A DNA stretch of 64,000 bases from a virus. The notes under the pieces are model-generated. The model was given only the letters and a program-made list of their open reading frames with translations, did no database searches and was not told the DNA's origin. Of the stretch, positions 2,353 to 10,688 are shown piece after piece; the first letter of the stretch is position 1, and each line of letters starts with the position of its first letter. The position numbers and the translations under genes were made by a program. The stretch covers positions 68,130 to 132,129 of IMG/VR virus record IMGVR_UViG_3300030390_001877, one strand, 5' to 3'.

Positions 2353-3399
2353 TTAAGTAAGTTGGATAATTGCTTCTGGTTTAGTTGCAAAATATAGCTT
2401 TTTAGCTTGAATCTCAAGAGTATGAGATTCATCATCATCAGAAGTACGTTCGAAAGCAAACATCTCTTGTCCGCCTTTATTAGCGTAAGAAAGTTTTGAA
2501 GCTGGTCCGAAGTAACCGCGAAGAAGATCACGGCCACCACGAGGTAATGCGATACCTTGACCTGCACCTAGTACTGTAACCTCTGTACCATCTGCTTCTA
2601 GGAAAGTAGGGTTATACGCTAAGAAACGTACACCACGATGTTCGAAGAAGTCTGTAACACCCCAAGAGTAGTATGCACTTAGGTCGTCACGAAGAAGTTG
2701 CTTACCAGAGTTTTGGTATTGGTTGTAAACTTCACGGAATTTAGGGTTAGCAATGATTTCGTCAAATAGAGCGTAATCTAACCAGAAGTCAACACCTTGG
2801 ATAGCTGCACCAGATTTAATACCACCAGAGATTTTACGTTTAACTTCTGCAATTTTAGCATCTAAGTCTACAGAAGCATTACCAGTGTCTAAGTCTACAG
2901 TGTAATCCGCAGCTTTATTAAGGCTATATACTGAATACATATCTGTAGCACCTGCAACAGCACCTGTAGGTAGATCACCTTTCATAGCTTTGAAACGTAA
3001 GTATTCATCACGTTGGTCATGTGCTAGACGTAAGTCTTCAAGCTTAGTAGAACGTACATTAGCAAGAGTTTCAGCAGAATCTGCTTCACCAGCCATACGT
3101 TGACCTTGGATATCATATACGTCAATATAATCCATCTCTTTGTAGAACTTCAACAGCATTGCATATTGGTCTACTTCACGGTCTTTACCAACGCCGTGTA
3201 CTTTAGACTGAGCACCACCTTCTGACATCATATTAATTTGATTTTTAATACGGTCAAAGATGATAGAATCTTGAGAAGTAGTAGTAGTGTTGAATAAGCC
3301 TTGTGAGCGGATAAAACCAAACTGGTTATCAATAACGTTTACGGCGTTAGTCCAGTCGATAATACCATTAATGTTTGAAGGATCGTGAGTTAATGCCAT
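2353..3399 (-). CDS. Major capsid protein (lambda gpE-like family)
   Basis: 348 aa; order protease-decoration-capsid; followed by a strong terminator; highly biased codon use. Confidence 0.85.
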   Translation of the reverse strand: MALTHDPSNINGIIDWTNAVNVIDNQFGFIRSQGLFNTTTTSQDSIIFDRIKNQINMMSEGGAQSKVHGVGKDREVDQYAMLLKFYKEMDYIDVYDIQGQRMAGEADSAETLANVRSTKLEDLRLAHDQRDEYLRFKAMKGDLPTGAVAGATDMYSVYSLNKAADYTVDLDTGNASVDLDAKIAEVKRKISGGIKSGAAIQGVDFWLDYALFDEIIANPKFREVYNQYQNSGKQLLRDDLSAYYSWGVTDFFEHRGVRFLAYNPTFLEADGTEVTVLGAGQGIALPRGGRDLLRGYFGPASKLSYANKGGQEMFAFERTSDDDESHTLEIQAKKLYFATKPEAIIQLT

Positions 3400-3415
3400 T
3401 TTTTATTATTCCTTA

Positions 3416-3820
3416 TTATACTTGAGCTAATACTTGGATACCAGCATTAGCTAGTAATGCATCGTACACTGCTTGTTTCTCTACATCTGTATCTACATCA
3501 GTAGCGAAAGATAGTGATTTATCTGCCACTTGAGAAGGACCAGCCATTAATACTGTCATTTCAAAGTCACCACCAACAGTAGTGTCGTCGTTAGCTAGAG
3601 TGTCGATTAAAACAGCATTAGCATTAGCAGTTGTTGCAACAGCAACTAGAATGTACTTACCAGCAACAGAAGTTGATTCTAATACAGCACCAATTTCCAA
3701 ACCCTCTGCAGGAACAGTTACAACCACTTTACGGCGTGTATAACCTGTTGCAGGAGCGTATTCATGTTTAAGAACGTCACCAACTTTAGTAGGACGACTT
3801 GCAATAAGACCTGTAGCCAT
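3416..3820 (-). CDS. Head decoration protein
   Basis: 134 aa between protease and capsid; DVLKHEY...RRKVVV, GAVL and GP motifs typical of gpD-like decoration proteins. Confidence 0.75.
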   Translation of the reverse strand: MATGLIASRPTKVGDVLKHEYAPATGYTRRKVVVTVPAEGLEIGAVLESTSVAGKYILVAVATTANANAVLIDTLANDDTTVGGDFEMTVLMAGPSQVADKSLSFATDVDTDVEKQAVYDALLANAGIQVLAQV

Positions 3821-3844
3821 TATTATTTTTCCTTATTTATTTTA

Positions 3845-5302
3845 TTAAGAGTTTTTCTTGTGACGAGCTAATAACTTTGCCATAACAGCGTCTTGGTCTT
3901 TAGCAGTACTTGTTGGTTCAACTTCTGCTTCTGCATCAGCACCAATTTCTTCACCAAAAGAAGTTTTAAGTTCTTCTACTTTAGTGTTCATTTCTGCTTG
4001 CAATGCTTCTTTTTCTGAGTTAAACTCTTCCATCTTAGTAGATAAAGTTTTCTCTAATTCAGATACACTTGCAGATGCTTGCGAGATTAAACCGCTAACT
4101 AATTCTTTGTGAACTGTATCAACGTTAGAAGCTAGTAAGAATTCTAAAACATCTTCTTGAGAATCTTTAAGGAAAGCATGTTTCGATAATTCTTTATTAA
4201 GAGACTCTTTGTGAGCTAATGCTTCTTTCTTTTCGTACTCTGCAACTTTACTAGCTAATAGTTCTTTTTCTTCTTTCTCAGCTTGTAAACTTGCTAATAC
4301 TTCTTCTTGTGCAGCTAACTTAGCTTGTAATGCGCTAAGTTCTGTCTGGTCAACTGTAGGAGTTGCCTGAGCTTCTTTAGACATAGATTGTTCCTCTGTT
4401 GTCATATTTAAAGTTTCAACTCCTGACGGAGAATTACTATTTTTACCTTTCGGCTTTATTCCCAAGTATTCTTGGAATTCATCTTCTTCCATTATCTTAT
4501 CGATAAAACCAATCGCTAAAGCCTTTTCAGCTTTCATAACCTTAGCTTGGGTATCAATAACAGTCTGAACGTCAATGTTTCTCATAGATGCAACGTGGGA
4601 AGTAAATTTTTCATAAAGTGTATCTACACTCTCTTGGATATCTGAAAGGAAACCTTCTCGGAAAGAACCATCCTTATCATAAGGAACCTTCTCACTACCT
4701 GCTGTAATGAATGTTCTCTCAAAGCCTTCCTTTTCTAGGTGCTTACTGTCATTCATAAGAGAAACAACAACACCAACACTACCTACCTCTGCTTCAGGAT
4801 TAACAACTATCTCGTGACAAGCACTTAATAAACCGTAACCTGCGCTGGCAGCCATACCATCCACGTATCCAATCATCTTGATATTATTCTTATCTGCCAA
4901 TTCACGGAGTTTATTAGCAGAGTACATCATACGGTAGGCTTGCCCGCCACCTGAATTGACTTTCATAAGAACAGTAGAAACACCTTTTTCAACAAGTTCT
5001 TCCATATCTTCGATTAAACCTACGTAGCTGCAACCGCCGCACATAGCTTCCCAACCTGTTTTCTTATAAGTAGTAGGACCTTCTACACGAAGGGTTCCTA
5101 TACCGTTAGATAACAAAGTAGTTTCTTCATCAGATATGAAATCATCTTGGTCATCATCAAAGAAAGCTTCTTTTGCGTATGAGTGTAGTAATTCTCTGTT
5201 ATCAAGAACTTCTGCAATCTCACGAGCTTTTTCTTCGATGATGAATTGAGGTTTTTCTAGGAGTGATTTAGATAGACGAGGAAGTTTATGTTTCTTAGAC
5301 AT
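3845..5302 (-). CDS. Prohead protease (S49/SppA family) fused to a C-terminal scaffolding domain
   Basis: NSGGG, GMAASAGY (catalytic Ser) and VGSVGV motifs of S49 peptidases, then an acidic coiled-coil C-terminus. Confidence 0.9.
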   Translation of the reverse strand: MSKKHKLPRLSKSLLEKPQFIIEEKAREIAEVLDNRELLHSYAKEAFFDDDQDDFISDEETTLLSNGIGTLRVEGPTTYKKTGWEAMCGGCSYVGLIEDMEELVEKGVSTVLMKVNSGGGQAYRMMYSANKLRELADKNNIKMIGYVDGMAASAGYGLLSACHEIVVNPEAEVGSVGVVVSLMNDSKHLEKEGFERTFITAGSEKVPYDKDGSFREGFLSDIQESVDTLYEKFTSHVASMRNIDVQTVIDTQAKVMKAEKALAIGFIDKIMEEDEFQEYLGIKPKGKNSNSPSGVETLNMTTEEQSMSKEAQATPTVDQTELSALQAKLAAQEEVLASLQAEKEEKELLASKVAEYEKKEALAHKESLNKELSKHAFLKDSQEDVLEFLLASNVDTVHKELVSGLISQASASVSELEKTLSTKMEEFNSEKEALQAEMNTKVEELKTSFGEEIGADAEAEVEPTSTAKDQDAVMAKLLARHKKNS

Positions 5303-7490: not shown

Positions 7491-7560
7491 AAGGATTCCT
7501 ATTATAAAAGAGAGATGCCTGAATAGACACCTCTGAATGATTTTCCATACTATAGATAGT

Positions 7561-7599: not shown

Positions 7600-9687
7600 T
7601 TAAAACAAACGTTTTGAAGATTGTTTGCCCATAGAGGATTTCATCTTAGAGTATTGTGTGTTGCCCGAGGATAATTGTGGGATGGCTACTGCTTTGTGGA
7701 TTTTGGAAGCGCTGAGGTAATTAAAAGCTGAAGCTACTGTATCTCCGAAATCATCCTTTTTAGTTGTAGTGGATCTTTCTCCATCAAAACCTTCAAGTTG
7801 TTTCATTATGTAATTATAAGTTTTCTCTGAGAAAGTATTCTTAGCTATTTTAATAAGTCCATTCTCTGCTGCTGTTGCGAAGGGGAGAAATTTAGTTAGC
7901 TTATTTTTATTGATAGGGCAAGGGTCTTTCTTGAAAATAAAACCGTGTTCATTGAAGAATTTAGCTTGTTGATTCCAAAGAGATTTTCCTGCGGCAGCAG
8001 GGTCCTGAGGCGCTACGATGTAAACTTCATCACCGTCATACTCTGCCTGTTTAATCATTGTATTATCCCTATCACCAGACCTCTTATATATCGCCCCTTG
8101 TATATCATCTACTTCATCGTAAAAATCTTCATGATATTCACCTGCTAAAACATAATAACCGTCATGAGTCTTATACATCTTGATACAAGTTGTTGGATCA
8201 GGGTTTTTCTGCGAAGTTGTCCTTTCGGAAGCCCCGAAATCGTAAGCCCTAACAGCAAAAGCTTTAGAAGGTATCTTATCTATTTCCTGTAACCACTCCC
8301 TCTTAAAATACTTAGTCCCGAAAGCCATTTCAGCCCAACAACCGTGTAGTAGTTGTGCCCTGTCAATATCATTAAGACCTTCTAAGAATGCGAGGTAGGA
8401 TGGATTAATTTCCATCATGATCGGATTGTCGTATATAGTACCACTAACAAAAGAAAAGGATAGTATCTTACCTTCCCATCTTTCCTTAGGAATTTCCAAT
8501 CTAGTACCTAACTCTTCTCGTGAATTACCCCATATATACTCACCTGCTTCTTGTACAAAGTATCTGACTACTCCATCTTTTTCTGGGTCAGGAAAACCTT
8601 CATCATCTAAGTACCATGAGATCATATCCTTTATCTCGTGCGAAGGAGAAGGGTTACAACTTATTACCATTCTTGAGAAGTGTTTAGAAGGGGATCTTAG
8701 TCGGGACATGAAGTACTCTATCTGTTCCCATTCGAATTGTGTCTATTGTTGTTCAAAGAAGTTCGTTACTCTTCTTCCGTCTATAAAGACTGCCTTATAT
8801 CACTATAAGAGTTCAGACTATATCATCATCTACGTGAGATGCTGTGCGCTTCCACCCACTTAGGTGTACAGGTTTCATAATCCTTTCTAAAGGATCGTTT
8901 ACCTTAGTCGTTGCACCTTCAAACTGATTACTCAGTAAGCTTGGCTCAGAATTGTCTTTCGTAAAAGAGTTTCTCTGAATTCACACAGTTATCGATATGT
9001 ATCGCTACATAAAGGGGCACACTGTTTACCCTCATCTATACCAACAAATGTAAACTCTTGTCCCTGAGCATCCATCTTTGACCTAGCTACGTTCTCTGCT
9101 TGCTGGTATTTTATTTTAGCACCATTAGGAAATACTACTTCCATCTTATGATCTCTTATTGCCTTAGGTTCAGAACCTTTAGGCATCTGTTCGTAAATTG
9201 CTCTGGCGTTAGGCCAAAGTCCCCCTAATAACTGCGGGTTTGTTCTACGGTACATGATGCAGTTTGTCTTACCGTCATCTAAAAGCATTAGAGGGAGGTG
9301 ATTTAGTATGGTACTTTTCCCAGATCCTGCCAATAAATCTCTCTGGGACAGTTTCGAGTTCGTTACACTCTTCCACAGTTTCCTGTGTTGTCGGATCATA
9401 TCTTCTACTTATAAAAGTAGCCCTACGTTTCGAATTCACTTGAATCCTACTCTCAAAATGAGATGACCTCTACACCCATGAATTTAATCATTCGGCTCGG
9501 TATTGGCATATGATATAACATATCACTTAGCTTCCACCGAATTAGCAGGGGAGTTTATGGTGTGACCACAGGAATTTTAAGCCCCACCTATTACTAGTAT
9601 TTGAGTATCAGAAGCTCTTTTCAACATAAGAGCTTGCTTCTTACTTGCAGGAGAGAAAAAGGGTTTCTTTCCTTTCTGTTTTGTCAT
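7600..9687 (-). CDS. terL: Terminase large subunit, spliced: join(9687..9580, 9330..9028, 8742..7600), 517 aa
   Basis: Exon 1 MTKQKGKKPFFSPASKKQALMLKRASDTQILVIGGA + exon 2 AGSGKS... rebuilds Walker A (GGAAGSGKS); exon 2 ...FVGIDEG + exon 3 TQFEWEQIEYFMSRLRS rebuilds Walker B; exon 3 carries the RNase H-like nuclease motifs (AYDFG, KKDDFGD). Confidence 0.93.
8743..9027 (-). mobile_element. Group I intron 2 in terL (285 nt, no ORF), inserted just after the Walker B DEG
   Basis: 5' exon ends in U (GAG GGU) and intron ends in G (AACAAUAG); P GAAUUCAGAGAAA, Q AAUUCUGAGCC, R GUGCAACGACUA, S GAUAUAGUCUG; P7 GACUA/UAGUC; P3 CUGUGUG/CGCACAG; splicing restores the frame. Confidence 0.93.
9331..9579 (-). 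mobile_element. Group I intron 1 in terL (249 nt, no ORF), inserted inside Walker A
   Basis: 5' exon ends GGG GCU and intron ends AUUUAUUG; P1 GGUGGGGCU/GGUCACACC with U.G at the splice site; P10 UCCUGU/GCAGGA; P AAUUCGGUGGAAG, Q AAUACCGAGCC, R GUAGAGGUCA, S AAGAUAUGAUCC. Confidence 0.92.
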
Positions 9688-10493
9688 TTTATAAAATCCT
9701 CGTGTTTTTCTTTAAATATTTTCAATGCTTCAGGTTGTCTACTGCCTTTGCAAAATCTGCTTATCATAGATTCTGCTATACCTCGTTCAGATGAAATAAA
9801 TTTCAAAGATTTTTTGTTTATTAATCTATCTTCTATAATATCAACAACATCATGTAGACCTAGTTTAGTTGTAGGATGTTTTCTTTTTATGAAATCTCCT
9901 TTCTTGAAACCTGTTATACTAGATAACCTTCTACCTGACAACCCATCCCATAGTGTATCTGGACTGGATACAGTTAAGCCTAGATTTTCACATATACATT
10001 TATACTCTAATCCTGCATTAAAAAGAAATCCTACATATTTCCATTCATACTTGGTAAGGGAACTCAAGGTCTTCTCTTTTCCATAACTTTCTGCATAATA
10101 TTTTATAGTATTAAACTCTGAGGTAACCCACTGTAAATTGTACCACATATTATTATCTTTTGTATTATCTATATGGTCTATTACTAAACAAGAATTTTCA
10201 TCAGGAGTGTCCACTAAAAAATGTAAAGCTACTAACCTGTGTACCCTCCTGTGTTTGTATTCCCTATTGCCATGGGACATAGCTACCTCTTTATAACCAT
10301 CCTTATCTGTTTTAGGTTTAAGTATACGTTCTCTTACTTTCTTAACACCTTCTATTCTATGGCGATTAACCCAAGGAGTCTCTCTTTTCAAACTCTTAAC
10401 TCTTCCATAATTACTTATCTGATATTTACCTTCAAAGTCTTGGATATCTTTCCATTCTTCCTTAACAGGGAATGCTATGTTATTCCAAATCAT
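9684..10493 (-). CDS. Free-standing HNH homing endonuclease (NUMOD4 + HNH, I-HmuI-like)
   Basis: WKDIQDFEGKYQISNYGRVKS (NUMOD4); VHRLVALHF...IDHIDNTKDNNMWYNLQWVT (HNH); stop codon overlaps the terL ATG (ATGA). Confidence 0.92.
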   Translation of the reverse strand: MIWNNIAFPVKEEWKDIQDFEGKYQISNYGRVKSLKRETPWVNRHRIEGVKKVRERILKPKTDKDGYKEVAMSHGNREYKHRRVHRLVALHFLVDTPDENSCLVIDHIDNTKDNNMWYNLQWVTSEFNTIKYYAESYGKEKTLSSLTKYEWKYVGFLFNAGLEYKCICENLGLTVSSPDTLWDGLSGRRLSSITGFKKGDFIKRKHPTTKLGLHDVVDIIEDRLINKKSLKFISSERGIAESMISRFCKGSRQPEALKIFKEKHEDFIK

Positions 10494-10659: not shown

Positions 10660-10688
10660 ATCTTACCACAAAGAACACCCTCTGTCAA
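10660..10688 (-). promoter_or_regulatory. Sigma70-type promoter driving HNH-terL
   Basis: TTGACA-17 nt-TAAGAT with extended -10 TG. Confidence 0.75.

Follow-up and report, generated by a model that had tools for sequence, protein, structure and literature searches.

Two predicted ORF-less group I introns in the terminase large subunit gene of an uncultured marine myophage

The terminase large subunit gene (terL) described here very probably carries two group I introns that lack open reading frames and is spliced to yield TerL; we put the probability of this reading at about 0.9. That the first intron is mobile in company with the homing endonuclease gene (HEG) directly upstream is a more tentative proposal. 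The two-intron interpretation is supported by a covariance model, by covariation among related introns, by alignment with the TerL of Cronobacter phage CR8, by intron-minus alleles and by homology to the terL intron of the Vibrio cholerae phage ICP1. The window, by which we mean the whole 64-kb stretch analysed, comprises bases 68130-132129 of a 132,129-bp IMG/VR viral genome that has direct terminal repeats and is rated complete. Judged by its TerL, portal and neighbouring proteins, the source genome appears to be that of an uncultured marine myophage allied to rV5, qdvp001 and ICP1. Its nearest public TerL, in phage and viral collections, is only ~60-63% identical over the third exon.

A terminase gene in three exons

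The gene lies on the minus strand in the following segments:
9687-9580, minus strand: terL exon 1; 108 nt, 36 aa, C-terminus ...QILVIGGA, the first half of Walker A (from the list of open reading frames)
9579-9331, minus strand: intron 1; 249 nt, ORF-less, group IA-like (P7.1/P7.2 present, no P2), beginning with an in-frame UAA and ending in G
9330-9028, minus strand: terL exon 2; 303 nt, 101 aa, AGSGKSTILN...FTFVGIDEG, from the Walker A lysine to Walker B
9027-8743, minus strand: intron 2; 285 nt, ORF-less, group IA-type, with P2 and P7.1/P7.2, ending in G
8742-7600, minus strand: terL exon 3; 1143 nt, 380 aa plus stop, beginning TQFEWEQIEY...

A sequence-only reading of the same DNA had proposed these exon coordinates and end residues, and all of them agree with the list of open reading frames and the translation. 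Both interruptions are in phase 0, and the joined frame runs for 517 aa to a single terminal stop. The joining of exons restores GAAGSGKS and FVGIDE. That reading had also placed the introns in the two Walker motifs. For intron 1 this is exact, since it interrupts Walker A itself (G-A|A-G-S-G-K-S). Intron 2 leaves the DE pair of Walker B whole and follows that Asp-Glu at a distance of one codon (IDEG|T).

Profile matches tie the exons together. Exon 2 covers Pfam Terminase_6N positions 7-104 and PHROG 979 positions 175-273; exon 3, which encodes the remainder of the ATPase domain and an RNaseH-like nuclease domain, matches Terminase_6N 111-214, Terminase_6C and PHROG 979 (E 7.3e-129). The PHROG 979 profile crosses the second junction seamlessly, with exon 2 reaching position 273 and exon 3 resuming at 274. 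Alignment with an intron-less homologue had been suggested as a check, and the TerL of CR8, encoded by a gene without either intron, proved continuous over both junctions: the joined frame is 50% identical to it (E 3e-175), with no gap at the first (QILVIGGAAGSGKS vs QILVMGGAAGSGKS) or the second (FTFVGIDEGTQFEWEQ vs FTFIGVDEGTQFEWEQ). Exon 1, in which the frame meets a UAA directly after ...VIGGA, aligns to CR8 TerL residues 5-28, and short exons homologous to it precede the intron in PH357, ICP1, qdvp001 and contig L018. By its domains, the joined product would be a T4-type large terminase (Terminase_6N/Terminase_6C) with Walker A and Walker B motifs and a C-terminal nuclease.

Ribozyme structure, intron-minus alleles and predicted splicing

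The guide and hairpin elements to which we refer below are:
9572-9559, minus strand: intron 1 internal guide (RNAalifold and pair counts)
9022-9013, minus strand: intron 2 internal guide (cmscan alignment, RNAalifold and reading of the sequence)
9357-9373, minus strand: P9.x hairpin segment of intron 1, GAAGAGUGUAACGAACU (pattern search)
8760-8774, minus strand: P9.x hairpin segment of intron 2, GAAGAGUAACGAACU (pattern search)

A scan with the Rfam group I model RF00028, proposed as a check on both introns, placed one above the gathering score of 50 and one below it: intron 2 scored 90.5 bits over its full length (model positions 1-253), and intron 1 scored 40.1 bits (E 4.8e-8 in 3.2 kb). Intron 2 is a textbook match to this model. 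Its P1 pairs GCCCCU (9018-9013) with exon GAGGGU (9033-9028), and the cmscan alignment sets the P1 U·G exactly at GAGGGU|AAA. P7 is GACUA/UAGUC, and P2, P7.1/P7.2, P8 and P9 were found, with GNRA loops; a candidate P10 can pair GUGU (9022-9019) with ACAC of exon 3 (8742-8739). We aligned intron 2 with those of Vibrio phage 249E41-1 and contigs L018 and L022, which share its DEx|T position exactly. In RNAalifold predictions on this alignment the P1 U·G (U12·G22) is invariant, three P1 pairs are compensatory, and the P3 helix has four compensatory pairs. Outside the window, the source genome contains two further RF00028 matches, one of them 76% identical to intron 2.

The case for intron 1 comes from its family. 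We aligned it with the introns of PH357, ICP1, P018-4, 1.161.O and qdvp001 (alignment A1), and RNAalifold independently predicted P1, P3, P4, P5, P6, P7.1, P7.2, P8 and P9. Once P7 and P10 were included as pseudoknots, pairing extended to 97.7% of cells; in controls with partners slid by 1-3 columns it was 32-40%. Compensatory change was seen in 23 of the 59 pairs, and none of 500 shuffles equalled the observed values. P1, P7 and P10 all covary. P1 pairs GGUCACACC (9567-9559) with exon GGUGGGGCU (9588-9580), with one G·A mismatch and with a U·G at the splice site that is invariant in the family (U12·G26 in A1); the pair at exon position -4 appears as G-C, A-U or U-A. P10 pairs CCUGU (9572-9568) with GCAGG of exon 2 (9330-9326), a double change specific to the window, with GCUGG and CCAGU found elsewhere. 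The RF00028 alignment of intron 1 (9372-9639) puts P1 within exon 1, a placement that the RNAalifold prediction and the covarying P1 overrule.

The family is widespread, occurring in 228 phage records from Vibrio (ICP1 included), Rheinheimera, Aeromonas and Pseudoalteromonas phages. A search with the core pattern recovered seven further viral contigs with an intron at GGxGCU|...G|GCUGG, in all seven at the identical codon boundary. At the GGA|AG site that the two phages share, 82% of the length of intron 1 aligns with the ICP1 terL intron, at ~75% identity. The ICP1 intron went undetected by RF00028 even at E<0.001, though its splicing is experimentally validated. RF00028 scores this Walker A family under its threshold and is thus a poor detector of it, and the sub-threshold score of intron 1 is therefore no counter-evidence.

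The P1, P10, P3 and P7 elements listed in the sequence-only reading are thus present and covary. Its remark that the two introns share a P9 segment is also accurate: GAAGAG(N0-2)TAACGAACT has two matches in the 64-kb window, each intron having one towards its 3' end, and 100 shuffles gave none. In each intron the segment folds to a hairpin with a GUAACGA-type loop. As that reading had it, the 5' exons terminate in U and the introns in G at both junctions. We reject an intein or a frameshift as explanations, the inserts being non-coding ribozymes.

Together these features suggest how TerL would be made. Transcription would yield a precursor in which both introns, as ORF-less group I ribozymes of IA type, would each fold into a P1-P9 core. 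An exogenous G would first attack the bond that follows the U of the P1 U·G; the freed exon would then attack the bond that follows the terminal intron G. The first junction so formed, in Walker A, would read GGG GCU|GCA GGA, and the second, a codon beyond the DE of Walker B, GAG GGU|ACA CAA. The 517-aa TerL with an intact P-loop would be encoded only by the doubly spliced mRNA, and translation of unspliced RNA would stop after 36 aa. By homology to ICP1, the RNA of this phage is probably spliced. The sole matching contig from an RNA library (156 nt, marine metatranscriptome X19) lies within exon 2 (9096-9251) and spans no junction.

Alternatively, no RNA splicing might occur, and TerL might be assembled from two or three polypeptides made separately, with the in-frame ATGs at 9399 and 8709 as starts. 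The corresponding ORFs exist (8989-9399, 136 aa; 7600-8709, 369 aa) and are reported by gene callers, and phages are known to have functional enzymes in split form (reference 8 as cited in PMC10448857). Nevertheless, we regard this as very improbable. The inserts are covarying group I ribozymes whose splice geometry restores the codons exactly, the ATG at 9399 is part of the ribozyme's conserved J8/7-P7 strand, the product begun there would read LLAGSGKS and would be missing the first P-loop Gly, and the homologous ICP1 gene is spliced.

Relatives that have one intron, the other or neither offer a further line of evidence for two introns at these junctions. Related-phage contigs from two marine metagenomes (X6 records 13 and 15, X7 record 17) precisely lack 9331-9579 and retain the Gly-Gly-Ala-Ala-Gly-Ser codons in synonymous form; viral contig L024 precisely lacks 8743-9027, with flanking exons 74% identical. 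For both introns, then, intron-less alleles (X6/X7, L024 and CR8) show precise absence with the frame intact. Contig L018, in turn, is collinear with the window over the endonuclease gene, both introns and all exons, at 69% nucleotide identity and with identical intron sites.

These relatives also bear on whether the locus is sound. The record is an uncultured viral genome with no isolate, and a decaying pseudogene or an artefact of assembling a metagenome-derived contig might be invoked. We give this almost no credence: 100% of the sampled words are present in three source runs, the genome is called complete and has terminal repeats, the three exons all have open frames, and isolate phages and an independent contig (69% nucleotide identity) keep the layout.

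It had been proposed that the need for two splicing events could make this a late-gene control point. In its fuller form, splicing of the two introns would be a regulatory checkpoint, by GTP sensing or timing, that gates DNA packaging. Active TerL requires the removal of both introns, and a similar 'molecular switch' hypothesis has been discussed for the Bastillevirinae, in which some introns are spliced only later in infection (PMC11878797). Late-gene control through splicing is speculative, however, and we consider the checkpoint improbable. Close relatives do without intron 1 (X6, X7), without intron 2 (L024, PH357, ICP1) or without both (CR8), and in the terL of SIOphi spliced transcripts alone were seen (PMC11878797). 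Because each intron is patchy among close relatives, we favour selfish elements over a conserved control device. The introns would be selfish mobile elements residing in the most conserved DNA of terL.

Among relatives, introns occur in Walker A at two positions separated by one codon: GGA|A for the family of the window and GGAA|G for VnaP and R16F. There are likewise two Walker B sites 6 nt apart, DEx|T (the window, L018, L022, L023 and 249E41-1) and D|E (qdvp001, P018-4, L025 and L026); in qdvp001 and L025 the second intron accordingly lies 6 nt upstream of the window's and has a different guide sequence. Across the alternative Walker A and Walker B sites the ribozyme cores are related and the guide sequences differ. 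The terL gene is an intron hot spot in this clade, with the codons of both motifs as recurrent targets and two alternative sites per motif. Identity between the window and L025 is 80-83% over exon 1, intron 1 and exon 2 and declines to 58% at the 3' end; the ATPase domain, being more conserved, would give such a gradient as well, and we make no claim of a co-conversion tract.

For tailed phages, terL is the standard marker of phylogeny and packaging strategy, and we see the chief value of this locus in annotation and comparative work. The expectation that automated annotation would show terL as broken is borne out among relatives: 'terminase large subunit' CDS fragments number three in qdvp001, four in VnaP and five in R16F. 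In several Vibrio phage records the terL start is called at a spurious ATG within the intron. Records from this clade routinely give terL as 2-5 fragments, or in a truncated form that starts at an intra-ribozyme ATG. The deposited records of qdvp001, L018, L022, L023 and L025 carry no intron annotation, and the R16F genome paper leaves introns unmentioned. The terL introns of this clade are under-annotated, not unknown.

The upstream endonuclease gene and proposed intron mobility

Directly upstream of exon 1, and overlapping the terL start codon with its own stop (ATGA), is a free-standing gene for a probable homing endonuclease:
9684..10493, minus strand: NUMOD4 plus HNH_3 endonuclease gene, 269 aa (Pfam NUMOD4 2.1e-17, HNH_3 3.2e-6; PHROG HNH endonuclease families)

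The protein aligns with I-HmuI (PDB 1U3E) at E 1.3e-18 and 34% identity over ~180 aa, with the DH..N..N motif aligned. With its NUMOD4 and HNH parts and its conserved catalytic His and Asn, it would be an I-HmuI-like HNH homing endonuclease. Matches of its C-terminus to designed PPR proteins in the PDB are repeat noise, no single stretch being significant.

An HEG lies directly upstream of exon 1 at every intron-1 locus we examined, and the genes belong to at least three nuclease classes:
NUMOD4-HNH upstream: the window, L015 and L018
GIY-YIG upstream: L022 and L023
T5orf172 upstream: ICP1, PH357, qdvp001, L016, L024 and L025
T5orf172-like upstream, classed by eye: L026

Here, as at these loci, a free-standing HEG stands beside an intron-bearing gene, and neither intron (249 and 285 nt) contains an HEG reading frame. 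The pattern fits collaborative homing or HEG turnover, without being proof of them. Intron 1 belongs to a widespread family that, at the loci examined, always occupies the Walker A site, always with an HEG directly upstream (here an I-HmuI-like NUMOD4-HNH), and that has most likely spread by collaborative homing or by endonuclease-driven gene conversion. That the HNH protein itself drives the mobility of intron 1 is only suggested, and we give it about even odds of being the mobility partner.

The introns could also be real and the NUMOD4-HNH protein no homing partner at all, the gene being either an independent HEG at a hot spot upstream of terL or a packaging accessory nuclease like HK97 gp74. 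We take this seriously, at somewhat less than an even chance. Vibrio phage 184E37.1 has a 52%-identical HNH gene upstream of an uninterrupted terL that is only 32% identical to ours. L018 and L022, nearly identical in terL, have upstream endonucleases of different classes, and both HEG turnover and an HK97-type role were raised by Barth et al. (PMC10448857). Pointing the other way are the presence of an upstream HEG at all intron-1 loci examined, and X7 record 17, a relative in which the HNH gene and intron 1 are absent together and intron 2 is present. Moreover, the protein is I-HmuI-like (NUMOD4, 269 aa) and in this differs from the short HNH proteins of the HK97 type, and the direct terminal repeats of the genome suggest that a cos-cleavage helper is not obviously needed. 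The link between the HNH gene and the intron is not obligatory, because 184E37.1 and apparently X6 record 15, which seems to retain HNH-like sequence, have the one without intron 1.

It is tempting to speculate further on mobility by homing, that intron 1 and the gene slot upstream of it form one composite mobile unit for which at least three unrelated endonuclease classes have repeatedly been recruited to the Walker A sequence, and that the single HNH protein may also co-convert intron 2, 303 nt downstream. We offer this tentatively and think it rather unlikely. TerL lineages that share the intron-1 arrangement are as little as 27% identical. If the composite unit is real, the loci would be a natural series for testing the origin of mobile introns along the Bonocora-Shub pathway.

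Relation to known systems

The closest precedent is ICP1, in which removal of the terL intron was established by RNA-seq, RT-PCR and Sanger sequencing (Barth, Dunham & Seed 2023, PMC10448857). Its authors read the intron and the adjacent T5orf172 HEG as collaborative homing or HEG turnover (PMC10448857). The ribozymes are homologous and are inserted in both phages between the two Ala codons of GGA|AG(S/G)GKS, in ICP1 between FYGGA and AGGGKS. Both genes have an N-terminal exon of 33-36 aa, an ORF-less intron, and an upstream HEG overlapping the start of exon 1. The two differ in the HEG, which is NUMOD4-HNH (I-HmuI-like) in the window and T5orf172 in ICP1, and in the second intron at Walker B, which ICP1 lacks. 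The TerL lineage of the window is nearer qdvp001 and rV5, and the experimental demonstration of splicing belongs to ICP1 only. In Vibrio phage qdvp001 (KT932418) and contigs L018, L022, L023 and L025, terL is likewise divided in three by one intron at each Walker motif.

Multi-intron terL genes are also found in the Bastillevirinae (SIOphi and phiAGATE), where splicing has been demonstrated (PMC11878797). These and the Twort-like Staphylococcus phages have 2-3 group I introns in terL, self-splicing in vitro and in vivo, and their introns concentrate in conserved DNA-metabolism genes. They are, however, phages of Firmicutes with an unrelated TerL lineage, and their introns are mostly longer (mean ~800 nt) and often HEG-bearing. 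Exon skipping was seen in SIOphi, whereas nothing hints at skipping of exon 2 in the window, where the P10 guide of intron 1, CCUGU, mismatches the start of exon 3, ACACA.

For the arrangement of intron and endonuclease, the precedents of collaborative homing are the gene 5.3 HEG with the DNA polymerase intron in T3/T7-like phages and F-CphI with the psbA intron in cyanophages (Bonocora & Shub 2009 and Zeng et al. 2009, as cited in PMC10448857). In the window, too, the interrupted gene is conserved, the group I introns are ORF-less and a free-standing HEG lies next to the gene. It differs in having two introns per HEG. Collaborative homing is defined by an HEG that cuts intron-minus alleles at the insertion site, an activity that for the HEG of the window is only a possibility. 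I-HmuI, the HNH nicking endonuclease of the SPO1 DNA polymerase intron, shares the NUMOD4 plus HNH architecture; it is encoded inside its own intron, unlike the free-standing gene of the window, and the C-terminal DNA-binding part is different.

In summary, the two-intron terL of this phage, with insertions at Walker A and Walker B, is a further example of the documented multi-intron terL genes and reveals no new mechanism. What appears new relative to ICP1, the HNH in place of a T5orf172 partner and the Walker B intron, is also present in public sequences (L018 and, in part, qdvp001). The locus also enlarges by one the set of Walker A introns whose upstream homing endonucleases are interchangeable.

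Annotation and detection of the Walker A introns

The conserved ribozyme core of intron 1, which interrupts the Walker A motif of terL, supplies an ATG in the frame of exon 2:

window 9399: ATG within AGAUAUGAUCC, J8/7-P7 strand

This is the start of 'terL' as called by gene callers (ORF 8989-9399). The sequences in at least 14 records of Vibrio phages (F89-F102; OZ195714 and others) have been rotated so that base 1 lies inside the intron, and exon 1 is lost from these records. The current RF00028 model is blind to the Walker A intron family: at E<0.001, the search returned no match to the experimentally validated terL intron of phage ICP1, nor to its homologue in PH357. The deposited sequence of Vibrio phage qdvp001 (1890-1900) would end its Walker A intron at ...UUACAA/GCU, with the terminal G absent, and the corresponding end in L016, a closely related contig, reads ...CGCAAG/GCU; the missing G may be an error in the sequencing, or the 3' site may be non-canonical.

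Insertion sites and related introns

Two Walker B intron sites, 6 nt apart, are used among the relatives: D/E in qdvp001, two intron-bearing viral contigs (L025, L026) and a further relative (L013), versus DEx/T in the window (9028/9027). The intron cores at both sites are related (for qdvp001, identity is 78% from position 38 onward), with guide sequences re-targeted between the two sites, and the qdvp001 intron forms a perfect 9-bp P1 with CUCGUAGAU. Two further RF00028 matches lie elsewhere in this phage's genome, beyond the window:

G000:C1:61907-62158, minus strand: group I intron L008, 70 bits
G000:C1:44646-44934, plus strand: group I intron L009, 53.7 bits

L008 shares 76% identity with terL intron 2, but its guide sequence is unlike that of intron 2 (L008 exon, CCAGAU).

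At the Walker A site, a marine metagenome contig of a relative (X7 record 17) lacks both intron 1 and the HNH gene. It differs from the window at only 2 of 96 bases of exon 1 (window 9580-9675) but at about 10% of positions across exons 2 and 3, and synonymous changes affect all four codons on the immediate 3' side of the insertion site. Recombination or co-conversion may have had its boundary at the insertion site.

The HNH gene upstream of terL

Two predicted signals flank the HNH gene and terL, each a consensus match only:

window 10660-10688, minus strand: promoter-like site, TTGACA-17-TAAGAT with TG, 5' of the HNH gene
window 7511-7534, minus strand: terminator-like hairpin just past the terL stop

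These matches, of kinds no commoner in the window than in shuffles, suggest that the two genes may form one transcription unit. An HNH gene of this kind also adjoins terL in Vibrio phage 184E37.1 (MW824371):

184E37.1, 2783-5174: NUMOD4-HNH gene and terL

Here an endonuclease 52% identical to that of the window lies immediately 5' of terL and overlaps it, and terL, only 32% identical to that of the window, is uninterrupted. This HNH lineage therefore follows the slot upstream of terL, intron-free loci included.
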